Position numbers and translations under genes: made by a program. From assembly GCA_943358385.1 (NCBI GenBank), contig CALRGX010000008.1, forward strand, positions 1 through 50,196: 50,196 nt of DNA, read 5' to 3'. Below, one piece after another: positions 2,471 through 42,454 of this stretch. Within the stretch, counting starts at the first letter, position 1. Every line of letters starts with the position of its first letter. The notes under the pieces are model-generated. The model was not told the origin of the DNA and made no database searches. It was given only the letters and a program-made list of their open reading frames with translations. This DNA is from Parcubacteria group bacterium. Lineage in GTDB: Bacteria > Patescibacteriota > Minisyncoccia > Phycocordibacterales > UBA2100.

Positions 2471-2567
2471 CAGTACCTCCAAAGAGCCATTGTGGCTGGG
2501 GAGAGCATACCAATCATTTAAGAAAGGTCTAGAATCCAATCGACAAATGCGGTAGAATCGGTGCATT

Positions 2568-2645
2568 GCCAGAATGGCGTAATGATAGAGCCAGGCAGCG
2601 CAGACTCGCAATTGGTCAGGTTGCTTGTCTCGTGGGAGTGAGGTT
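2568..2645 (+). pseudogene. Decayed partial copy of tRNA-Leu (5' end to start of T-loop)
   Basis: GCCAGAATGGCGTAATGATAG matches tRNA GCCGGAGTGGCGTAATGGTAG at 18/21. Later blocks GCGCA-GACTC, TGTCTCGT and GTGAGGTT match the tRNA in order. Confidence 0.6.
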
Positions 2646-2655
2646 GCTGACGAAT

Positions 2656-2736
2656 GCCGGAGTGGCGTAATGGTAGCCGCGCACGACTCAAAATCGTGTC
2701 TCGTAAGGGGTGAGGGTTCAAGTCCCTCCTCCGGCA
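2656..2736 (+). tRNA. tRNA-Leu(CAA)
   Basis: Acceptor GCCGGAG/CTCCGGC+A, anticodon arm CACGA-CTCAAAA-TCGTG, long variable arm, T-arm GAGGG-TTCAAGT-CCCTC. CCA not encoded. Confidence 0.95.
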
Positions 2737-2908
2737 CAGAAAACAGTTGAGCCGAGAGCGTGCCTCTCGGCGATTACTGTTTTTGCCGGGGCGGGACTTG
2801 AAAGGCGGAGCCGGTATACAAGACGAGCGCAGCGAGTGCTTGTCGGCGAGCCAGGGCAGGAACCACTTTCCCGAGCGCGGAGCATGCGAGGGATTAGTGA
2901 GTTGCGCC
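2720..2908 (+). mobile_element. Putative non-autonomous structured insertion at tRNA-Leu T-loop (copy 1)
   Basis: 16-bp direct repeat CCTCCTCCGGCACAGA at 2725-2740 and 2912-2927. Antisense copy of the tRNA 3' end at 2784-2802. Two-hairpin core 2803-2908. Confidence 0.7.
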
Positions 2909-3011
2909 AAGCCTCCTCCGGCACAGAGCCAAGCGATAGGGCGGAGAGAAAAGTGGCTGGTCTCTGTAAACGGGTGGAAAACTGGGCACGGGTGCATGAT
3001 ATACTCGCGCC

Positions 3012-4010
3012 ATGGACAACGATAATCGTTACTATTCCAACTCGATTTTCTGGGTAGAGGTGGAACGCATCAAGCCAAACCCCTACCAGCCGAGAAAGAC
3101 GTTCGATGAATCTAACCTGAATTCACTTGCTGAATCAATCCGCCAATACGGCGTTTTGCAACCATTGGTGGTTACTCGACAGGAAATAGAAATTCCAGGC
3201 GAAGGCATTCGTGTAGACTACGAATTGATTTCTGGTGAGCGACGTTTGCGCGCCGCGCGCATTGCGAAAGTTGCACAGGTCCCTGTCGTCATCCGGTCTC
3301 ATGAAGAGAGTGACAAGATGAAACTTGAGCTCGCTATCATTGAAAACCTCCAGCGTGAAGATTTGAATGCACTGGATCGTGCGAAAGCATTTCGCCAACT
3401 TGTTGAAAGTTTCAATCTCACCCACGCAGAAGTGGGCCGCCGTATGGGAAAGAGTCGCGAGTATGTTTCGAATACCCTGCGCATTCTACTTCTCCCCGAA
3501 GAAATGCAGCAGGCATTGGTAGATGGACGTATTTCTGACGGCCATACGCGCCCGCTCTTGATGCTTGCCGATAAACCGGAAGAGCAACTAGTCTTGTTTA
3601 AGGAAATCGTAGATAAAAAAATGACGGTCCGTGAAGCAGAGGCCGTGTCGCGCCGTGTGGCCGTAGAGCGGGCTCGCAAGCAGAACTTGCCGCCCGAGCT
3701 TCTGAATCTAGAAAAGGAGCTCACTGAAACGCTCGGCACACGGGTGCGCATCGAGCCACGCGAAAAAGGCGGCAAAGTGCTCATCGATTTCTTCTCATCG
3801 GAAGATTTGGCTCATTTGGTAACGGCAATCGCTGCGCGCCAAGCACATGCTGCCGATATGCCCAATTACTTGCCGCCACCGTCCGATACTCCCGTTTTGG
3901 ATAGCATGGTTGCTAACGATGCACCGCTTACTATAGAAGAAGTCGTCACCGACACGCTGACCCCAAAGGAAGAGGAAGATCTCTACTCAATGAAAAATTT
4001 CAGCGTTTGA
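3012..4010 (+). CDS. parB: ParB/Spo0J chromosome partitioning protein
   Basis: PNPYQPRKTF, GVLQPLVV, ISGERRLRA, IENLQREDL, HTH GKSREYVSNTLR. Confidence 0.95.
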   Translation: MDNDNRYYSNSIFWVEVERIKPNPYQPRKTFDESNLNSLAESIRQYGVLQPLVVTRQEIEIPGEGIRVDYELISGERRLRAARIAKVAQVPVVIRSHEESDKMKLELAIIENLQREDLNALDRAKAFRQLVESFNLTHAEVGRRMGKSREYVSNTLRILLLPEEMQQALVDGRISDGHTRPLLMLADKPEEQLVLFKEIVDKKMTVREAEAVSRRVAVERARKQNLPPELLNLEKELTETLGTRVRIEPREKGGKVLIDFFSSEDLAHLVTAIAARQAHAADMPNYLPPPSDTPVLDSMVANDAPLTIEEVVTDTLTPKEEEDLYSMKNFSV

Positions 4011-4067
4011 CCTGGCAGGACATACTTTCTATACTCGGCACTGGCATCAGCAAAAGGATTCACTACC

Positions 4068-4355
4068 ATGACACAGACGAGTGCGCATGCAAGCGTGCGC
4101 TGTCCATTTTACGGAGTCGGCCAGACGTGGGGGCTGATCCGCTGGGAGTGCAATCAGTGTGCTTTCAAGAACCTCCATTCGCCATGCGATATGGAAGTTG
4201 CCGGCGAACGTCCCGATTGGGATCGCTGTGTCCGCAAAAGCCAGACATCGCAATCAGAAATAGACGGCCTGATGAAGCAGACGCTCTTGAGTATGATGCC
4301 GCGCGAGCCGGACATACCATTCTCCCAATGGTTCGCGAAAGTTATGAGCCGGTAA
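4068..4355 (+). CDS. Cys-containing hypothetical protein
   Basis: 95 aa. TATACT and AAAGGA upstream, hairpin 4374-4399 downstream. Fills the gap between parB and relA. Confidence 0.6.
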   Translation: MTQTSAHASVRCPFYGVGQTWGLIRWECNQCAFKNLHSPCDMEVAGERPDWDRCVRKSQTSQSEIDGLMKQTLLSMMPREPDIPFSQWFAKVMSR

Positions 4356-4373
4356 TCCCGCCGTGCATCGTCC

Positions 4374-4399
4374 AAGGCGCCTCGCTCTCGAGGCGCCTT
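4374..4399. terminator. Hairpin between convergent genes
   Basis: AAGGCGCCTCG-ctct-CGAGGCGCCTT. Confidence 0.6.
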
Positions 4400-5915
4400 A
4401 CTGTTGCCCCAATGCTGAGCGAATGTGCTTTTTCGCCATGGTGGTCTTCGCAATGTCGAGCCATTTCTTGCTCGGCTTTGCGCTCTCTTTTGTGGTGATT
4501 TCCACGATGTCACCGTTGCGCAGTGCGGTATCCAAGGACACCAACTTACCGTTTACTTTTGCCCCCGCAATATGGTTGCCAATATCTGAGTGCACCGCAT
4601 ACGCAAAATCGATAGGGGTTGCCATCAACGGCAAATCGATAGGGTCACCCTTGGGGGTAAAGACGAATATACGGTGCTCAAAGAAATCGTCTTTAATATT
4701 CTCCAGGTACTCGCTTGAATCAGAATCGTCTTCTTTAAATGCGGCAAGCTGTTGCACCCATTGGGGTACATTTTCGTTTCGCTTGGGGGTGGCTTTCGTT
4801 ATTTGGCCCGCTCGGCGTGGGAGGAATTGGCGAACCCATTCAGCACCCGAGCCACGGCCACCACTTAAGTAGCCGCTCTCCTCTTTGTATGAAAAGTGCG
4901 ATGCAATACCAAACTGTGCCTCTTTGTGCATCGCCTCGGTGCGCACCTGAATCTCAAGTGTGCCGCCATCACCCGTGTACACGGTTGTGTGAATACTTTG
5001 GTAGCCATTTGGTTTTGGGTTTGCAATGTAGTCTTTGATTTTGCCAGGCACAGGGCGCCAGTGTGCGTGAATGATGCCCAGAGTGTTGTAGCAGTCAGCC
5101 ATGCTGGGAACGATGATGCGCAAGGCGAGGATGTCGTGAATCTTGGTGATATCCCAATCTTTGCGCTCCAGTTTCTTGTAGAGACTGTAGGCACCCTTCT
5201 TGCGCGCTTCGGTGTGGAATTGGCGTATGCCCGCGGTAGCCATCTCTTTTTTCAGTGTGCGGTCGGTTTTTTCAAGACGATGCTCACTTTCTGTGTGGCG
5301 TTCCTTTAAATGTTTCTTTACTCGCTCGTATTCTGCAGGGAAGGCAAAAGGGAATACGGCATCTTCCAGCTCTGTTTTTAAAACACTCATACCCAAGCGA
5401 TCGGCAATGGGTGCATATATTTCGAGTGTCTCCATGGCGATGCGCTTTCGCTTATGTGGAGGCACGTGTTCAAGGGTTTGCGCATTGTGTCGACGGTCCA
5501 TCAATTTAATGATGAGTACACGGATATCTTGTGCCGTTGCGGCAAATAATTTGCGCAAACTTTCAGTGTGCCGCTCGAGCCCGCGGTAGCGCAAGGCACC
5601 AAGTTTGGTCACTCCATCAACAAGGCCGAGGATTTCATTACTAAATTCCTTTTCAATCGTTTCAGGAAGTACCCCCACATCTTCGATACTGTCGTGTAAA
5701 AGACCTGCAGCAATCGTGGGCGCATCCATACCCATATGTGCCAACGAGTGGCCCACTTCGGCAAGGTGCAGGAAATAAGGCTCCCCCGAGTAGCGTGTTT
5801 GGGCTTTGTGAGCGTCTCTGGCGAACGTATATGCCTTTTCAACGAGGGCAACGGATGCTGGCTCCTTCGCCTGCATTTCTTTGATAATACTCTCGAGAGA
5901 TTTGACGGATGCCAT
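4398..5915 (-). CDS. relA: RelA/SpoT family (p)ppGpp synthetase/hydrolase (HD + synthetase + TGS, no ACT)
   Basis: RYSGEPY, LLHDSIED, DRRHN, DILALRII, KPNGYQSIHT, EIQVRT, FVFTPKG, DFAYAVHSDIG. Start may be 5915 or 5927. Confidence 0.93.
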   Translation of the reverse strand: MASVKSLESIIKEMQAKEPASVALVEKAYTFARDAHKAQTRYSGEPYFLHLAEVGHSLAHMGMDAPTIAAGLLHDSIEDVGVLPETIEKEFSNEILGLVDGVTKLGALRYRGLERHTESLRKLFAATAQDIRVLIIKLMDRRHNAQTLEHVPPHKRKRIAMETLEIYAPIADRLGMSVLKTELEDAVFPFAFPAEYERVKKHLKERHTESEHRLEKTDRTLKKEMATAGIRQFHTEARKKGAYSLYKKLERKDWDITKIHDILALRIIVPSMADCYNTLGIIHAHWRPVPGKIKDYIANPKPNGYQSIHTTVYTGDGGTLEIQVRTEAMHKEAQFGIASHFSYKEESGYLSGGRGSGAEWVRQFLPRRAGQITKATPKRNENVPQWVQQLAAFKEDDSDSSEYLENIKDDFFEHRIFVFTPKGDPIDLPLMATPIDFAYAVHSDIGNHIAGAKVNGKLVSLDTALRNGDIVEITTKESAKPSKKWLDIAKTTMAKKHIRSALGQQ

Positions 5916-5963
5916 AAGAATATACATACTACGCCCCAGACTGTTTTAGGCAAGGAGGAAAGC

Positions 5964-6227
5964 ATGGAAACCCCATCGAGTCTCTCGATCCAAGATATGA
6001 ATGAAAGCGGTGCCAAGGTGGTCGCACTCATTGCACGGCTGCCCACACCCCCGCACTTTCGAACACAGCGACCATCGCCCGTCGGCATGACGGTCCGCGA
6101 GTATCTGGATCTGCTGAGCGCTGGCGACAAGGCCACGCACGCCTGCGGGTGCGGATGGAAAGGCACTGCCTCAGGAGACGCCGGCGCCTGTCCAGCTTGC
6201 GGCGGGGTAGTCACCCCTCAAACGTAG
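5964..6227 (+). CDS. Small zinc-ribbon hypothetical protein (87 aa)
   Basis: AAGGAGG SD before ATG 5964. C-terminal CGCGW...CPACGG. Palindrome downstream. Confidence 0.65.
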   Translation: METPSSLSIQDMNESGAKVVALIARLPTPPHFRTQRPSPVGMTVREYLDLLSAGDKATHACGCGWKGTASGDAGACPACGGVVTPQT

Positions 6228-6250
6228 CGCTGTCAGAACAGCACCGAACC

Positions 6251-6276
6251 ACAACCACCTGCATGCAGGTGGTTGT
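6251..6276. terminator. Perfect 26-bp palindrome between convergent genes
   Basis: ACAACCACCTGCATGCAGGTGGTTGT. Confidence 0.6.
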
Positions 6277-6379
6277 TACTTTTTGGAGGCTGCTTTTGTA
6301 TTTTTTGTGGCGTCTTCCGTCTTATGCGGATTGTGGTTTGGGCAAGTTTTGTTGCTGCAACGCTCGGGAATTGTTTTTG
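6276..6379 (-). repeat. Displaced second copy of the topA 3' end
   Basis: Encodes KTIPERCSNKTCPNHNPHKTEDATKNTKAASKK*. 34 bp (6346-6379) identical to 6548-6581, then synonymous differences only through ...HKTE. Confidence 0.9.
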
Positions 6380-6580
6380 GTCACCGATAATTTTCTCGTC
6401 GCCACTCGAAAATTTCCGCGACCCCGACTCGCGATTTCGTGTGCTCACGAAATATCGCTCCGTCTCACAAAAACGAGCTGTGCAAGAAGCGAAGGCTTCT
6501 GGCTGCCAGATTACTTTTCAGTCTTATGCGGATTATGATTCGGACAGGTTTTGTTGCTGCAACGCTCGGGAATTGTTTTT
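6379..6580 (-). mobile_element. Putative non-autonomous structured insertion in topA 3' end (copy 2, 202 bp)
   Basis: Direct repeats 202 bp apart. Antisense junction copy at 6466-6474. Core AGACGGAGC...GCGAGTCGGGGTC...GACC matches the architecture of copy 1. Confidence 0.75.
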
Positions 6581-8691
6581 GTGCCATCCATCATGAGGGC
6601 GCTACAGATCTTGCAGATGTTGCCGGTAGGGCGGGCCTTAATGGCTAGTTTGCAGTCTGGGTAGTTCGAGCAAGAAAAGAAAGGGCCGAATCGTCCACGC
6701 CGTTCTACCATCTCTCCATTCTCTCGTTTGGCAGCAATACAATCTGGGCATTTGACGCCGGTGGAGTTGAGGAGTGCATCTTTCTTTATATATTTACACT
6801 TAGGGTAGCGCGAACAGGCGATAAATTTTCCAAAACGTCCTTCGCGCTCGGTCAGCTGGCCCCCATGCTTTTCAAAACACTCGGGACACGTTTCCCCGAT
6901 TTCTCGCGGCGGCTCGATGATCGAACCGTCTTCTTTGCGTGCGCCATGGCATTCGGGGAATTTTTTGCAGCTCATAAACTTTCCGTTGCGCGAAAGTTTA
7001 AATTCCATGGGGCCAGCACACAGTGGGCAGGGAAATTCTGCCGGGACATCACCAAGAGAGGTAATTTTCGCGATTTTCTTCTTGCTCTTCACTGCCTTCG
7101 TGAAGGGACCATAGAAATCTTTGAGTGTCTTCACGTACTCACGCTTGCCGTCAGCTATTTCATCCAGCTCATCTTCCATTTCCGCAGTAAAGGAATCACT
7201 GATGTAGTCTTTGAAATGTTCTTCAATAAAGCTCGATACCACGTCGCCGGTATCGGTGGGGATGAGGGTGCGGCCTTCCTTCACTACGTAGCCACGAGTT
7301 ACCAGTGTATTGATGATGCTGGCGTAGGTGGAAGGGCGCCCAATACCGCGCTTCTCCAGCTCCTTCACCAGGCCCGCCTCACTATATCTGCCTGGCGGCT
7401 GCGTTTGCTTGTGCTCGCTCTCGATACTCATCAGTGAAAGCTTTTCTCCCGCTGTCACTTTCGGCAATTCCACGTCTTCGCCGCGTGCTTCGGGATCTGC
7501 CAGAAGCCATCCTTCAAACACCACGCGTGATCCGTTGGCAGTAAATGCAGGAATGCCCGCTCCTTCAGCAACAGCAGTAATAGTGGTGCGCATTACCCGT
7601 GCGTCGGCCATTTGGCTCGCGAGTGCGCGGGCGCGAATGAGGCGATAGAGTTTCTTCTGTTCTTCGTTGCTGCCGGCAGAAAGTTTGCGTGGGTCGGTGG
7701 GGCGAATGGCTTCGTGTGCTTCTTGTGCTGATTTACTTTTGGTCTTGTATTCCTTTGCTTCTGCAAAGGTTGGACCGAACTCTTTTGTCACCTGGGAAAC
7801 CAAGGCTCCTTGTGCTTCCTTGGCTAGATTGGTTGAGTCGGTACGCATGTATGAAATGTGTCCTGCTTCGTACAGTTTTTGCGCGACCTGCATCGTGCGT
7901 GACGGTGAAAAACCAAATCGCGTGGAGGCGGTCTGCTGCAGTGTAGAGGTAGTAAACGGCGCACGTGTGGCGCGCTTCTGTTCCTTTTCTTCTACCGACG
8001 CAACGCCCCATGCACCTTTGCGCCCTGCGGCAAGGATGCGCTCTGCTTCTGCTTCACTACGTGGCTCTTCGACGCAGCTAGCTACAAAGAGTGCGTTTGC
8101 CTTTGTTTTAAACTGAGCGGCAAGCGTCCAGAAGTCTTCGGGGATGAATGCGCGAATTTCGCGCTCACGCTCCATGATGATGCGCAGAGCAGGGGATTGC
8201 ACACGGCCAGCAGAAAGCCCGTAGCGTACTTTTTGCCAGATAAGGCCGGAGAGGTCATATCCAAAAAGGCGATCCAGCACGCGGCGTGCTTCTTGTGCTT
8301 CACGCAGCTGTGTGTCTACTGGTCGCGGGTGCTTCAATGCCTCGTTTACTGCTGATTCAGTGATTTCATGGAAGACAATGCGTTGCGGCTTTTTAAGTTT
8401 AAGCGCCTGCGCCAAATGCCACGCTATCGCCTCGCCTTCACGGTCGGGGTCGGTTGCCAAAAGGACAGTATCTGCTTTCTTTGCGAGGGCACTGAGCTCG
8501 CTGATGATTTTTTCCTTGCCTTTTACGACGACATAATTCGGTACGAAACCTTTTTCAATATCAATAGCATTCTTACTGCTTTTTGGGATATCGCGAATAT
8601 GCCCCACGGATGCGCGGACGGTGTACCCCTTGCCGAGGTATTTTTCGATGGTTTTCGCTTTTGAGGGCGACTCTACAATTACGAGATGCAT
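6511..8691 (-). CDS. topA: DNA topoisomerase I (type IA) with C-terminal zinc ribbons
   Basis: LVIVESPSKAKT, ATDPDREGEAI, SAGRVQS, ISYMRTDS (catalytic Tyr), QEAHEAIRPT, GIGRPSTY, zf-C4 repeats. Confidence 0.98.
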   Translation of the reverse strand: MHLVIVESPSKAKTIEKYLGKGYTVRASVGHIRDIPKSSKNAIDIEKGFVPNYVVVKGKEKIISELSALAKKADTVLLATDPDREGEAIAWHLAQALKLKKPQRIVFHEITESAVNEALKHPRPVDTQLREAQEARRVLDRLFGYDLSGLIWQKVRYGLSAGRVQSPALRIIMEREREIRAFIPEDFWTLAAQFKTKANALFVASCVEEPRSEAEAERILAAGRKGAWGVASVEEKEQKRATRAPFTTSTLQQTASTRFGFSPSRTMQVAQKLYEAGHISYMRTDSTNLAKEAQGALVSQVTKEFGPTFAEAKEYKTKSKSAQEAHEAIRPTDPRKLSAGSNEEQKKLYRLIRARALASQMADARVMRTTITAVAEGAGIPAFTANGSRVVFEGWLLADPEARGEDVELPKVTAGEKLSLMSIESEHKQTQPPGRYSEAGLVKELEKRGIGRPSTYASIINTLVTRGYVVKEGRTLIPTDTGDVVSSFIEEHFKDYISDSFTAEMEDELDEIADGKREYVKTLKDFYGPFTKAVKSKKKIAKITSLGDVPAEFPCPLCAGPMEFKLSRNGKFMSCKKFPECHGARKEDGSIIEPPREIGETCPECFEKHGGQLTEREGRFGKFIACSRYPKCKYIKKDALLNSTGVKCPDCIAAKRENGEMVERRGRFGPFFSCSNYPDCKLAIKARPTGNICKICSALMMDGTKTIPERCSNKTCPNHNPHKTEK

Positions 8692-8752
8692 ACAATAGAT
8701 TGAAGGGTACACGCAAGGTGCGCGGGCGTACAGTACACGCTATCCCCATAAC

Positions 8753-33185: not shown

Positions 33186-34349
33186 ATGGCTCTCTCAAAC
33201 ATAAAGAAACTTAGTATTGGGCTTCTCTCGCTATCGCTGCTTGTAGGAGTGGCAACGTTGGTCGAGTACGGTGCTCTTTTGAAGACACCTCTGCCTGCTG
33301 TGTCGACAACTGAGAGTGTTTCTTTTGAGGTTGAGGAAGTAGCCGCTGGTCTTGAAGTGCCGTGGTCTATGGTGTGGACAGGGAACGATCGCATGTTGAT
33401 TGCTGAACGACCCGGTAGAATTCGTGTGTTTGAAAATGGTGTATTGCGTAACCAGCCGTTGCATACGTTCACCGACGTAGCAACAGGAGGGGAGGAAGGT
33501 CTCATGAGTCTCGCGGTCTCTCCTTCGTATCAAGATGACCGCAGTGTATATGCGGCTCTCGTGTACGAGAGTACAGGAAAGCTCTTTCTTAAGGTGGTGC
33601 GGTTGCTCGACAGTGCAGAGCGATTGGTTGTTGATGGTGTCGTTATTGACGGCATACCAGCCGCACGTTTTCACGCAGGCTCGCGTATTGCATTTGGCCC
33701 TGATGGCAAACTCTACATAACAACGGGCGACGCTACCAACCGCGCGGATGCGCAGAACATTGCTCTTTTAGTGGGTAAGACATTGCGCCTTAATCCAGAT
33801 GGCTCGATACCTGCAGATAATCCGTACCCTTTGTCTCCTGTCTGGAGTAGTGGGCATCGTAATGCGCAAGGCATAACCTGGGACGAGCGTACTGGTGAAC
33901 AATACCAAAGCGAGCACGGGCCTTCAGTTTTTGATGGACCCGCGGGTGGCGATGAGATAAATCTGGTTGTTCGCGGTGGAAACTATGGTTGGCCACTGGT
34001 CTCGCATGGCGAGACCAAAGAAGGTACTCTTGCGCCTATCCAGATGTTCACCCCGGCAGAAGCGCCAGGGTCACTCATGTCGTATAGCGGAGATGTTTTT
34101 CCTGAATATAATGGCAATCTATTTTTCGGCGCTCTCAAAGGGGAAGGTCTTGTTCGTCTTGTGCTCTCGCCAGATACTGCCGACCACATAGTGTCTGTTG
34201 AGAAGTTGCCTGGGATTGTTTTTGGTCGCATTAGAGACGTTGCACAGGGACCAGATGGATTCATATACTTCACCACATCCAATCGTGATGGCCGCGGAGA
34301 GCCAGCAACGGCTGACGACAGGATACTGCGACTTGTTCCTCGGTTATAA
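33186..34349 (+). CDS. PQQ-dependent glucose/sorbosone dehydrogenase family beta-propeller
   Basis: GLEVPW, H.GSRIAFGPDGKLYITTGD, GHRNAQG, EHGP, DEIN...NYGWP, GRIRDV.QGPDG. Confidence 0.92.
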   Translation: MALSNIKKLSIGLLSLSLLVGVATLVEYGALLKTPLPAVSTTESVSFEVEEVAAGLEVPWSMVWTGNDRMLIAERPGRIRVFENGVLRNQPLHTFTDVATGGEEGLMSLAVSPSYQDDRSVYAALVYESTGKLFLKVVRLLDSAERLVVDGVVIDGIPAARFHAGSRIAFGPDGKLYITTGDATNRADAQNIALLVGKTLRLNPDGSIPADNPYPLSPVWSSGHRNAQGITWDERTGEQYQSEHGPSVFDGPAGGDEINLVVRGGNYGWPLVSHGETKEGTLAPIQMFTPAEAPGSLMSYSGDVFPEYNGNLFFGALKGEGLVRLVLSPDTADHIVSVEKLPGIVFGRIRDVAQGPDGFIYFTTSNRDGRGEPATADDRILRLVPRL

Positions 34350-35103: not shown

Positions 35104-35982
35104 ATGACTATGGTAAAAAATTGGCGAAAAGCCCCTCTTGTGCGAACGTTTGCGCTTGCTGCGTTTCTTTTACTCTTGCTTCCTGTGCACAGTGCACACG
35201 CGCTTTCGTGCGCCGCACCTGAGCCTGCGCGGCTCATCGCAAATGGAGGTTCGATTCTGTTTGGCACAGTAACCAATGTAGAGCGTGTCTCGATTACCAA
35301 TCAAACAAATGGTGGGTACCAGGAAGAAAGCCGCGTTACTATGACCGTCGAGAAGGGTTGAGGCATAGTTATGCCGACCGTTACTTTTTTAAATAGCGTG
35401 ACACATCGACCTGTTGATACCACTGGCACCTTGCCACAAATTGCGGGAGGTCCAATGGTGTCGTCTCCGTTTCTAGTGGGGAATCGGTACGCCATTATTC
35501 TTGAACGTGGCTATGCGCATCTGGGTACTTGCTCGCAATCAACTGAAAGTAATGGAGGAGTGCGTGATGCCTCATTTATCGAATCCTTGCGCAACTGGGG
35601 TTTGACTGGGGATCCGGTGTATCCAGTGACACCTCCTGTTTCCTATGCGCAATCCACCTACTACAATCAAGGAAACTACTACGCTCAGAGTACCTACATT
35701 ACGGATGAAGAAACACCGCAGGTGAGTCACTACTGCCCGATGTTGTCGAGTACCATGCAAATTGGCGCGCGTGACTCACTCACGAACCCTCGAGGTCAAG
35801 TGTCAGAACTCCAGCGATTTTTGGCGGATTGGTTTGATGTAGACGAGCGTGATTTGGTGACCGGCTATTTTGGCAGGAATACGCGTATGTACACACAAAG
35901 ACTGCAGCAGCAGTTCGGATTGCCCTCATACGGCATAGCAGGTGCTATGACGCGTGCAGTCATTGCTCGAGAGTGTCGCTAA
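35104..35982 (+). pseudogene. Secreted protein with C-terminal peptidoglycan-binding domain, interrupted by in-frame TGA at 35359-35361
   Basis: Track ORFs 35017-35361 and 35371-35982 are in frame, separated only by TGA plus 3 codons. Signal peptide in the first, VSELQRFL...TGYFG..T...Q...G in the second. Confidence 0.65.
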
Positions 35983-41434: not shown

Positions 41435-42454
41435 TCAGAGAACTTTTCCTATGCGCTCGAGTCGTGGCGCCAAGACCGTATAGCCGCGCGTGTATGCAGC
41501 ACGTGGTAGCCCCATAGCAGCGAGGACATAACGGTAGAGGTCGAAATAGTTGCGTGGCGGATGCTCGCGGCGGCGGACGTGCAATTCGATTTCTCTCCGA
41601 AACGCCAAGGGCCAAATAGGTACCGGGAAGTCAGTGCCAAAAACCAGCCTTTCAGACAGTACTGAGTTTGCTATCGCATTCCGGAGGCGCGTCTTTCGAT
41701 GCGGTGACGCCATTCCAGAAACATCAAGCCATAGACTGCCATGATACTTTTCGGCGAGCTGTTGTACTTGCCAGAATTGTTCACGATCTTCTCTGAAAGG
41801 TACATTGCCACAGCAGTGAGCCGCGACTACCGTCACCCCTTCCCGAAGCATGTGCTCAAGTCGAGCAACGTTTGCGAAGTCATGGTTGATGACGGGCAAT
41901 GCGTACTCCATCCCGATGTGGCAAAGAAGAGGTAGCTGTGCTTCGCGCACTTTCTGGTAGAAGCGGGCAAACGAACGCTCAGTGGGATCGAAACCCATTA
42001 CGCTCGGGAGCCATTTCAACATAACCGCGCCTTCCTCCAGGACTTTGTCCAGCTCATCTTCCCAATCGCGGCGCATGGGATTGACCGATGCGCAGAACAG
42101 CATCTTTTTGTGCGCCGCACATGCAGCAACCACCGCCGCGTTGGTGACCATTTTAGGAGTGCGTGCAGAGTCAAAGTATCCTTGTGCTGTGTACACGCCA
42201 TCAAAGGCAAGAACGGTGGCGTAATCGACGGTAGACGCCTCCAAGTTGCTTGCCAGTTTATTGCTTATTCTTTCATGCAAGTCTTTGGGGTCGGGCATGC
42301 GGCGGGCAAGCAGTTCTCTGGGCGACAAGACGCCAAGCGTTGCCGCGACCCCGCGCGACCGTAGGCCACGCATAAACGCAGGGTGTACCCAGCATCCATG
42401 TGCGTCCGACGGAACTACCAAATGGCAGTGCATATCGATAATTGGCTGATTCAT
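41435..42454 (-). CDS. Amidohydrolase family (TIM-barrel metallohydrolase)
   Basis: IDMHCH, ASVNP, LKWLP, LCHIG, VAAHC, LVFGTDFP. Confidence 0.88.
   Translation of the reverse strand: MNQPIIDMHCHLVVPSDAHGCWVHPAFMRGLRSRGVAATLGVLSPRELLARRMPDPKDLHERISNKLASNLEASTVDYATVLAFDGVYTAQGYFDSARTPKMVTNAAVVAACAAHKKMLFCASVNPMRRDWEDELDKVLEEGAVMLKWLPSVMGFDPTERSFARFYQKVREAQLPLLCHIGMEYALPVINHDFANVARLEHMLREGVTVVAAHCCGNVPFREDREQFWQVQQLAEKYHGSLWLDVSGMASPHRKTRLRNAIANSVLSERLVFGTDFPVPIWPLAFRREIELHVRRREHPPRNYFDLYRYVLAAMGLPRAAYTRGYTVLAPRLERIGKVL

Follow-up and report, generated by a model that had tools for sequence, protein, structure and literature searches.

Integrase islands at tRNA genes classically carry a block of identity that runs from the T-loop to the 3' end of the gene, and they accrete in tandem (Williams 2002; CIME and SCCmec literature). 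Tyrosine-integrase islands, CIMEs, and pseudo-SCC elements insert in the T-loop of tRNA or tmRNA genes or in the 3' end of protein-coding genes, supply a replacement for the gene end, accumulate in tandem, and include non-autonomous members. The elements that we describe here are alike in all of these respects, but they are just 0.15–0.25 kb long, their antisense arm is accompanied by a scaffold that shows covariation, and one family of scaffolds serves many targets. In IS110/IS1111 elements, a non-coding structured module (the bridge or seek RNA) is associated with a segment complementary to the target, and the choice of target is programmable in principle. The present elements also place a structured module beside a target-complementary segment, and in many copies this guide is bipartite around a hairpin, as in IS110/IS1111. 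Here, however, both parts of the guide pair with the same strand of the target, the element restores the target gene, and Rfam has no match. A literature search found no description of these elements.

We analyzed a window of 50,196 nucleotides from a Parcubacteria group bacterium (contig CALRGX010000008.1), which contains one insert in tRNA-Leu(caa) and another in topA. The initial annotation had proposed that these are two copies of one family, that they repair the genes they enter, and that their structure is conserved while the target-matching segment changes with the target. All of this was borne out. Both inserts have the repeats and the same three-helix fold, both duplicate the 3' end of their target and complete it (the tRNA-Leu gene and the topA reading frame), and both are genuine members of a large family of non-coding mini-elements of about 150–250 nt that are prolific and integrate at specific sites. 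In the orientation of the target gene, an element begins by repeating all of the target that lies beyond the insertion point, in many cases including a terminator, so that the gene remains whole. Next come an antisense copy of the target across the insertion point (the arm), the conserved hairpins D and E immediately 3' of the arm (the two-hairpin scaffold), and the displaced original end of the gene, which later decays. Because the restored gene end recreates the target site, elements accumulate in tandem. The arm is different for every target, and its position beside a conserved scaffold hints at a programmable choice of insertion site.

To count elements in this bacterium's very small genome (914 kb, 91.8% complete), we asked if each tRNA or tmRNA gene has an exact 9-nt antisense match to its own TTC plus 6 nt of the T-loop region within 160 nt downstream. 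This was the case for 21 of 39 genes, while the chance of such a match is, by our arithmetic, around 160/4^9 per gene. Many of these 21 genes also have tandem elements and displaced copies of the 3' end, and there are 28 tRNA-linked elements in total, several of them in tandem, so the further copies that the initial annotation had called for do exist. The T-loop is the main insertion site, and some copies lie near the 3' end of protein-coding genes such as topA or after a terminator; the arms in this genome match the 21 tRNA/tmRNA genes, topA, and one terminator-proximal site. At the boundary between the acceptor stem and the T-stem, a small hairpin (loop AACTGCTT) interrupts the arm in many loci. 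In the tandem copies at tRNA-Val(gac), the arm is still perfect but the elements' own displaced sense copies have decayed.

In the window, tRNA-Leu(caa) lies at 2656–2737 on the forward strand (identified by ARAGORN; 58.3 bits for the Rfam tRNA model), with 2656–2719 from the host and 2720–2737 supplied by the element. The element itself (189 nt; scaffold subtype E2) spans 2720–2908, with boundaries set by a repeat of the tRNA 3' end (2725–2740 is identical to 2912–2927, 16/16) and by the predicted fold. Its restoring sense arm (2720–2740) starts at T-loop position 57 and is followed by the apical hairpin B of helix A (2741–2782), which has a terminator-like core at 2751–2771. The antisense arm (2783–2802) includes an inverted copy of 2717–2729 (at 2790–2802; 13 nt, 92%; inverted repeat I10) and ends in GAA, which pairs with the host TTC at 2717–2719. 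The predicted fold of 2717–2908 consists of three helices: A (2717–2802, closed by the host TTC and GAA), D (2804–2851, with a GGA/GA internal loop), and E (2854–2908, whose 3' end is the right junction). The fold energy is -53.9 kcal/mol, as compared to -32.6 ± 3.5 for shuffled sequences (z = -6.0; 0 of 200 shuffles were as good). The displaced tRNA 3' end (2909–2927) has a 2-nt deletion that is shared with the congener G001.

The same tRNA-Leu site is occupied in genomes G000, G001, and G002 and empty in G003 and G005. At this site, G000 and G001 have different D/E subtypes. Modules that are nearly identical to this copy are present at other tRNA genes; for example, helix D is 100% identical to that of the element at tRNA-Asp (contig C4), while the E helices of these two elements differ. 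The shared and differing helices among loci and genomes suggest recent mobility and mosaicism.

The copy in topA (reverse strand, 6379–6580, 202 nt) has scaffold subtype E1. The 3' end of topA is duplicated with a spacing of 202 nt (6315–6379 versus 6517–6581; 65 nt, 91%). The element carries the last codons and stop of topA (6511–6580), which complete the reading frame at 6511–8712, and the displaced native end (6276–6378) is still an open frame up to its own stop. Beyond it is the native palindromic terminator of topA (6251–6276; inverted repeat I9), which is conserved in G001. The predicted fold has the same three helices: A (6583–6466), D (6464–6427), and E (6424–6379), with z = -2.9 (2 of 200 shuffles were as good). 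Within the antisense arm (6466–6478), a core at 6466–6474 is complementary to the junction, including the host CAC. Helix E, in which one G.U pair is invariant and G.A pairs occur in tandem, is the best match to our covariance model of the scaffold, R1 (94.3 bits).

Relatives, to which the initial annotation had pointed for comparison, do have empty sites: besides the tRNA-Leu sites above, G001 has no insert in its topA. Furthermore, a 609-nt contig without mismatches from run X4, from the same lake population, joins 6345 to 6548 and skips exactly 202 nt, while run X3 has the filled form. This element-free allele could also stem from homologous recombination across a 34-nt identical block. Of 65 nucleotides, 6 are not the same in the spare and displaced ends of topA, and since all six differences are synonymous, the spare end was imported; by eye, the displaced end is nearer to topA of G001 at three of the differing sites and the spare end at one.

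Some finer claims held in part. The junction was described as NNC^AA, which fits both copies in the window (C^AA) and one subfamily only; other copies have TTC^GA. Similarly, an antisense copy with exactly 3 host nucleotides is a property of subfamily 1; two further subfamilies retain GAA as the end of the antisense arm, but their displaced copies begin 3–4 or 7 nt further in, deeper in the T-loop or in the T-stem. The proposed scaffold word AGRCGGAGC has 17 matches in the genome (both strands) versus about 14 expected by our arithmetic, which is not significant on its own; 9 of the 17 are family members by context. As was claimed, no enzyme is encoded, and we found no open reading frame in the small copies. 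Longer copies, which the initial annotation proposed to look for, turned up, in that a few members are 2.5–3.3 kb with cargo genes, but no element-encoded recombinase was found.

Outside of this genome, R1 has matches in 26 of the 41 related genomes searched, a single genome having as many as 24, and the family is absent from 14 of the 41 by both the model and BLAST. Among 56 matches kept from 80 contig loci, which come from Saccharibacteria, Paceibacterota, and Elusimicrobia, 38 lie within 400 nt after a tRNA or tmRNA gene. The D/E scaffold is conserved from Patescibacteria to Elusimicrobia. We aligned 16 scaffolds from several phyla and found compensatory changes in 20 of the 29 predicted pairs. 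The one that had been noticed from the window (GGC/GCC versus GAC/GTC) is a true compensatory pair (columns 3 and 49; GC in 15 sequences and AU in 1). Overall, 92.6% of the cells in paired columns are pairs, as compared to 76.3% in shuffled alignments (none of 500 reached the observed value) and 30–42% in slid controls. No known Rfam family accounts for this structure: at the gathering threshold, Rfam 15 finds only the tRNA across the entire window, and with E up to 10, positions 2500–6700 give only the tRNA and a chance-level match of 22 bits on the tRNA. The analogy to group I introns found no support: there is no such match, the scaffold measures only about 100 nt, and the insertion duplicates the gene end instead of splitting it.

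We did not find a recombinase that is encoded by the elements or that co-occurs with them. This genome has one Xer-like tyrosine recombinase, four large serine recombinases, and one full-length and one truncated Y1 gene. The Xer-like gene is the only one with PF00589 and has an N-terminal SAM_1 domain; most relatives have one tyrosine recombinase per genome, with or without the elements. There is no match in this genome to IS110 (PF01548), RVT, TnpB, Nop, or L7Ae. RRXRR and Y2 were not matched either, and these two negatives say little because the searches did not match any control genome. No TnpA or TnpB adjoins any copy that we examined. Co-occurrence of recombinases with the elements is weak or nil.

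We propose that these are integrative mini-elements that are moved in trans by strand transfer guided by base pairing, at a three-way junction and via a single-stranded DNA intermediate. We infer this mechanism with a probability of roughly 45%. The top strand would fold into the three-way junction, with both recombination junctions located where the helices branch, one at the foot of helix A on its 5' side and the other at the 3' foot of helix E, and a trans-acting enzyme would bind the D/E scaffold. The antisense arm would pair with the sense strand of the target while it is single-stranded, perhaps because of transcription or replication. One strand would be cut just 3' of the C in the target TTC and just 3' of the last C in helix E, and the ends would be exchanged; the host TTC would then pair with the element's GAA and lock the product, and replication would fix the insertion. 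By analogy to IS200/IS605 peel-and-paste or to recombination of CTXphi and attC hairpins, we favor DNA as the intermediate.

The arm and scaffold could instead be transcribed, by read-through from the tRNA or from their own start, as an RNA with a 5' guide and a 3' scaffold for an RNA-guided recombinase or nuclease. Such an RNA, analogous to the IS110 bridge RNA or the omega RNA of IscB/TnpB, would mobilize or home the DNA element. We consider this to be a serious but improbable alternative. The covariation, the tandem G.A pairs, the GNRA-like loops, and a G.U pair that is invariant (16 of 16 sequences) would fit RNA equally well. Apart from that pair, G.T (7) and A.C (6) cells are balanced. 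The position of the arm immediately 5' of the scaffold, the bipartite arms, and the arms in tandem copies that still match the live tRNA gene also fit a guide RNA. On the other hand, neither copy in the window has a promoter-like site, and the terminator-like hairpin in helix A lies just upstream of the arm, which together weakly favor DNA over RNA. Also, this genome lacks an IS110, TnpB, or RRXRR-type protein (with the caveat above for RRXRR), and the IS110 gap is why we rejected membership in that group, as a 91.8%-complete genome has no DEDD_Tnp_IS110 match.

It is unlikely that these are miniature double-stranded att sites in the style of CIMEs or pseudo-SCC elements, with a conventional recombinase acting in trans and with hairpins that are palindromes for protein binding. 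The identity block from the T-loop to the 3' end and the tandem accretion do match the pattern of integrase islands, and the enzyme could be a phage or plasmid integrase or one of the four large serine recombinases, three of which abut tRNA genes (tRNA-Ser, tRNA-Glu, and tRNA-Ala). Large serine recombinases over the family cutoff, as in SCC-like elements, are somewhat more common in genomes with elements (16/27) than without (5/14). But 11 of the 27 do not have one, including G027 (14 copies) and G029 (12 copies), and there is no R1-type module beside recombinase genes in the 8 serine-recombinase loci that we searched. More than 20 different targets with nearly identical scaffolds should be unreadable for one sequence-specific recombinase, and pairing is maintained while the sequence of the helices changes, which is not expected of protein-binding palindromes. 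For tyrosine-integrase islands or CIMEs proper, there is no cognate integrase beyond the single Xer-like gene, which is present in most relatives regardless of the elements.

Slightly less likely again is that no dedicated mechanism exists: the elements would spread by DNA uptake and homologous recombination between flanking genes and reach new sites by rare illegitimate events, and the structure would have another role, such as termination or RNA stability. The lack of an enzyme, the synonymously diverged topA end, and the possible recombination across the 34-nt block would suit this account. Illegitimate events leave unexplained the matching antisense arm at every new site, and the account is at odds with the identical scaffolds at unrelated targets and with right junctions that are precise to the nucleotide (by eye, the displaced copy starts at position 57 of the T-loop among the subtype-1 matches listed, from several phyla). 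Finally, an immobile host RNA that acts downstream of tRNA genes in processing or regulation, with the repeats as by-products, would fit the high occupancy and the conservation across phyla, but it was already disfavored and is very improbable given the presence or absence at orthologous sites and within one population, the 14 relatives that lack the family, the tandem arrays with decaying gene ends, and the insertion within the reading frame of topA.

Our preferred reading, guided strand transfer of single-stranded DNA, can be compared with several known systems. IS200/IS605 elements and PATEs, which are moved by the Y1 HUH transposase TnpA, are likewise strand-specific, lack terminal inverted repeats, and insert 3' of a short target word; they include small non-coding copies that move in trans, as we propose for ours, and have subterminal hairpins at both ends, as the folds predict here. 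On the left, cleavage falls in the flank, at a site recognized through base pairing with a short guide that adjoins a hairpin foot on its 5' side; this guide here would be the GAA before helix D. The cleavage site on the right is paired at the base of the second hairpin, which here would be helix E. The predicted folds are compatible with this geometry: a single base separates GAA from helix D, and at the foot of helix E the terminal CC takes part in pairing. In contrast to IS200/IS605, our elements carry a long copy of the downstream target and an antisense arm of 10–25 nt. We rejected membership because Y1 genes (PF01797) do not co-occur with the elements (14/27 genomes with elements versus 8/14 without, and none in G001 or G029, with 12 copies each). 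Also, neighboring tRNA genes on opposite strands are both occupied (21499(+) and 22033(-) on contig C1; 4463(+) and 5226(-) on C2), so there is no sign of lagging-strand bias, comparing gene strands only. As for REP/RAYT systems (a single-copy RAYT and many REP palindromes with a 5' GTAG), a RAYT-like gene is present in this genome but does not co-occur with the elements, and GTAG precedes the arm only where the tRNA ends in GCACA.

In CTXphi attP(+), IMEX, and integron attC sites, a folded single strand that is built from inverted copies of the target is the recombination site, as we propose for our elements. In our reading, these sites would resemble ours further in that a few paired bases lock the strand exchange, the stems have bulged bases, the enzyme comes from the host or acts in trans, and the target site is regenerated, which leads to tandem arrays. 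Reading the junctions, we found no dif-like or R-box (GTTRRRY) word. The attC sites have R''/R' boxes (RYYYAAC/GTTRRRY) and a crossover at G^TT, but our junctions read C^RA, and TTC is missing from the displaced copies, which places the crossover elsewhere. Nor do these appear to be Xer elements of the IMEX or CTXphi type, which use dif and XerC/D: one Xer-like gene is present, but the targets are over 20 tRNA/tmRNA genes, topA, and the terminator-proximal site. Those systems each have one fixed target (dif or attI), whereas here each of more than 20 targets has its own matched arm, within an element of about 200 nt that adds a conserved scaffold of two hairpins.

Copy 1 lies in the tRNA-Leu(caa) gene (2656-2737, + strand; called by ARAGORN and Rfam) and occupies 2720-2908 (+ strand). 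The 3' end of this gene, from the T-loop on, is repeated 187 nt downstream (2725-2740 and 2912-2927 agree at 16 of 16 positions), and an inverted 13-nt copy of 2717-2729 is found at 2790-2802. Copy 2 lies at 6379-6580 (- strand), and the last 65 nt of its host frame, topA (ORF 6511-8712, minus strand), are present twice, with a spacing of 202 nt and 91% identity. Folded as single strands, both inserts form the same three helices (A, D, and E), with z = -6.0 for copy 1 and -2.9 for copy 2. In helix A, the copy of the gene's end (the sense arm) pairs with its own antisense (the antisense arm), and the closing pairs are three host bases: TTC/GAA in copy 1 and CAC/GTG in copy 2. Then come one unpaired A, helix D, two bases, and helix E, with the right junction at its final base. 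Given the repeats, the inverted copy, and the shared fold, the initial annotation was correct that the two inserts have a common architecture. Separately, the stretch just before tRNA-Leu(caa), at 2567-2650, contains a tRNA-Leu-like 5' fragment in which 22 nt match the beginning of the tRNA at 86% identity; neither ARAGORN nor Rfam calls it, and the congener G001 has a similar stretch.

Comparison with empty sites, which had been proposed as a check, shows that the inserts are insertions. In G001, the end of topA is uninterrupted, and both the palindromic terminator after it and the neighboring genes are as in this genome. Also, a 609-nt contig from a second sample of the same lake study joins 6345 to 6548 with no mismatch and omits exactly 202 nt; the joint lies in a 34-nt identical block, and the filled form is present in another sample. 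The tRNA-Leu(caa) site is occupied in this genome (G000), in G001, and in the relative G002, and it is empty in G003 and G005. The element in G001 has a different D/E subtype from the one in G000, and the displaced tail has the same 2-nt deletion in both genomes, so there is turnover of elements at a single site.

The restoring and displaced copies of the topA end encode the same 21 residues, and all six of the nucleotide differences between them are synonymous. If the target had been duplicated and had then diverged in place, changes should have hit all codon positions in the unselected copy, and by our own rough estimate six out of six synonymous differences would have a chance of ~0.003. 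Copy 2 therefore imported its functional topA end, which comes from another lineage, and a shorter tail (…TEK) took the place of the native one (…TEDATKNTKAASKK). A DGR was rejected, as the differences are not adenine-specific and there is no RT.

The initial annotation considered two copies to be thin support; further copies make this a large family, with 28 distinct tRNA-linked elements in this genome. ARAGORN identified 39 tRNA/tmRNA genes (one call without the T-loop word was left out of the evaluation). As a guide-independent criterion, we looked for an exact 9-nt antisense of the gene's own TTC plus 6 nt, at most 160 nt downstream, and 21 of the 39 genes have one; for two more, the exact antisense is found only beyond 460 nt. 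Tandem arrays of two or three elements follow the tRNA genes for Val(gac), His, Pro(ggg), Gly(ccc), and Tyr. Copies away from tRNA genes are the one in topA and a tandem pair after a terminator on contig C10. The scaffolds fall into four or more subtypes. Both window copies belong to subtype 1, where the displaced copy starts directly after TTC; in two others, it starts 3-4 or 7 nt later, and the antisense arm still ends at GAA. The word AGRCGGAGC, before which the initial annotation proposed to look for the antisense copy of the junction, is by itself at chance (17 matches versus ~14 expected by our arithmetic); 9 of the 17 matches share the whole architecture.

The scaffold formed by helices D and E is a conserved structure. 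For an alignment of 16 D+E modules, one from the topA copy and the other 15 from named Saccharibacteria, Paceibacterota, and further MAG contigs, RNAalifold predicted 29 pairs, with compensatory changes in 20, which bears out the compensatory change noted earlier between the two copies. On that structure, 92.6% of the cells are paired, versus 76.3% in shuffles, and none of 500 shuffles attained any of five measures; if the partners are slid, pairing falls to 30-42%. A G.U pair at a distance of four bases from the right junction occurs in all 16 sequences, and among the other cells, G.T (7) and A.C (6) are in balance. Both D and E have recurrent tandem G.A motifs in a C-GA-G context.

We searched for further copies with R1, a covariance model of the scaffold, as had been proposed. 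It found 13 copies in this genome (E <= 0.01) and copies in 26 of 41 related genomes, with a maximum of 24 per genome. BLAST with copy 1 adds one relative (G014), and the other 14 have no match by either method. We also scanned genome_contigs, which has one genome per species, for a 19-base scaffold pattern. This gave at least 120 loci, versus ~135 expected by chance (our own arithmetic); since the raw count is what chance predicts, we rejected it as evidence and used genomic context instead. Among the 80 loci examined (L042-L121), we kept the 56 matches that continue with NGG, and 38 of these lie within 400 nt downstream of a tRNA/tmRNA gene on the same strand. Most come from Saccharibacteria, many Paceibacterota lineages, and Elusimicrobia. 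Among the listed matches of subtype 1, displaced copies begin at T-loop position 57, as read by eye. At many loci, a small hairpin with loop AACTGCTT splits the antisense arm between the acceptor-antisense and T-arm-antisense parts. In one class of guides (L055, L060, L073, L082, L108, and others), the arm ends in GAGAA and not TCGAA; in that case, GA in the arm would lie opposite GA, the first two target bases past the cut, and the cleavage site might thus have a tandem G.A pair. A phage origin was rejected: the eight pattern matches in viral_contigs look like chance, as all of them lack the NGG continuation and also an antisense arm.

Some copies are associated with cargo. In an Elusimicrobium, a mini-element is followed by a 3.3-kb element with a Ser/Thr kinase and two ORFs without a family, which terminates in an R1-type module and a displaced tRNA-Val end. 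In this genome, the copies on contigs C5 and C6 have kilobases of cargo between the element and its tRNA: two stretches of 2.6-2.7 kb (C5:38186-40790 and C6:9030-11925) are bounded by a tRNA gene on one side and an older mini-element on the other. One of them, 2.6 kb long and downstream of tRNA-Ser(gga), has genes for a CsoR-like repressor, DUF305, and a MauE-like protein, with hairpin B, an arm, and an R1 module at its end; the other encodes a 725-aa HEAT-repeat protein. These stretches may be cargo-bearing members of the family. A search for longer copies with a recombinase-type ORF had been proposed; neither C5:38186-40790 nor C6:9030-11925 contains a recombinase.

The small copies encode no enzyme, as originally reported, and the ten ORFs that adjoin modules in other phyla are ordinary host genes. 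The genome (91.8% complete) encodes a single Xer-like tyrosine recombinase and four large serine recombinases, and it has two Y1 (RAYT-like) genes, one full-length and one truncated. It has no match to IS110, RT, TnpB, Nop, or L7Ae, and the absence of Nop and L7Ae family matches led us to reject K-turn-binding proteins. Searches for RRXRR and Y2 had no match either, and neither matched any control genome. Across the 41 genomes, serine recombinases are found in 16 of 27 element-positive versus 5 of 14 element-negative genomes, Y1 in 14 of 27 versus 8 of 14, and almost every genome has one tyrosine recombinase. No R1 module lies beside Y1 or serine-recombinase genes in the loci searched. None of the three is a convincing partner.

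Three of the large serine recombinase genes (L002-L004; C1:137299-138876, - strand; C3:33660-35261, - strand; C6:322-2199, + strand) are convergent with tRNA-Ser(gct), tRNA-Glu(ctc), and tRNA-Ala(ggc), and their frames extend into these tRNA genes, which have no mini-element. Resolvase, Recombinase, and Zn_ribbon_recom domains were identified in the genes on C3 and C9. On either side of the C3 gene is a perfect 92-nt inverted repeat (33719-33810 and 35324-35415), which begins at the end of the tRNA and includes a segment resembling an arm, antisense to the T-arm; a similar repeat on C1, of ~130 nt, lies at a contig end. Next to the C3 element, a 225-nt inverted repeat (C3:35413-35637 and 41641-41863; 98.7% identical) surrounds ~6 kb that may be an invertible or composite element. 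C6:1-149 and C7:1-149, the starts of two contigs, are 100% identical; breaks in the assembly fall in repeats of the serine-recombinase element. On C14 (L006, 1296-1789), inverted repeats of 26 nt bracket the truncated Y1 gene (64 aa), which has inserted into the 3' end of a gene whose product has a Cys-rich C-terminus. The final 47 nt of the interrupted gene occur twice (89% identity, with differences partly at synonymous sites), so here a second type of element also restores its target gene. Some relatives (G003, G013, G016, G019, G023, and G034) have 4-6 RAYT-like Y1 genes per genome, which behave like insertion sequences and not single domesticated genes.

The most far-reaching reading, to which we give a probability of about 35%, is a new class of nucleic-acid-guided, reprogrammable site-specific recombination. 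A ~100-nt two-hairpin scaffold and a 10-25-nt antisense arm would direct a putative enzyme, possibly a host housekeeping one, to exchange a single strand at a three-way junction, and any gene end could be a target if a spare copy is carried. The family is widespread in Patescibacteria and Elusimicrobia and capable of carrying cargo. Both recombination junctions would lie at the branch point of the three-way junction, the antisense arm would pair with the intact target across the cut, and after the exchange the host TTC would lengthen helix A by three pairs. A serious rival is that the guide is an RNA. A terminator-like hairpin of the restored gene lies inside helix A, and we saw no promoter-like site, which weakly favors single-stranded DNA as the intermediate. 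Alternatively, the arm might only form a hairpin with the sense copy. In tandem copies, however, the arms match the live tRNA perfectly while their own sense copies decay, which argues that the arm reads the target. Two observations are suggestive of retargeting: the arm of copy 1 scores slightly higher against tRNA-Leu(taa) than against its host (17 versus 15), and the element at tRNA-Ile(tat) carries the arm of the tRNA-Lys(ctt) element. A "pseudo-tRNA," in which the arm pairs with the displaced tail, is unsupported, as 20 of the 38 tRNA-linked matches have no exact copy of the tRNA tail after the module; many displaced tails have thus decayed. A hammerhead or other small ribozyme was dismissed by eye, as the topA copy has GTG in place of GAA and Rfam has no match.

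Regardless of the mechanism, the 3' ends of tRNAs in these lineages are often borne by elements, assemblies break at the element repeats, and a covariance model is now at hand for annotating them. More than half of the tRNA genes in this genome are occupied, and some copies are accompanied by metal-homeostasis or kinase genes. If the antisense arm sets the target, this would explain how DNA is shuffled in ultra-small genomes that have almost no recognizable transposases.

Searching Rfam at the gathering threshold and at E <= 10 gave only the tRNA. A full-text literature search, at the level of listings and abstracts, did not turn up a description of such elements, and a search by term found no relevant passage in the preprint 10.64898/2026.10.21.760802. 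Most of the known families tested for membership (IS200/IS605, integron attC, IMEX/CTXphi, tyrosine-integrase islands/CIMEs, IS110, group I introns, Rfam families, and REP/RAYT) have at least one defining feature that the mini-elements lack; as for large-serine-recombinase elements, 11 of the 27 element-positive genomes have no such recombinase over the cut-off. We classify the mini-elements as non-autonomous, target-restoring integrative elements. CRISPR-associated transposons and IS110 bridge RNAs are natural routes to programmable DNA insertion. If the arm sets the target, the mini-elements would be a third, with a donor that is very small, non-coding, and has built-in sparing of the target gene. 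The proposed geometry resembles that by which a guide pairs with the cleavage site at the ends of IS200/IS605, and that of the folded attP of CTXphi. Unlike either of these, the mini-elements have a long target-specific arm and a spare gene end.
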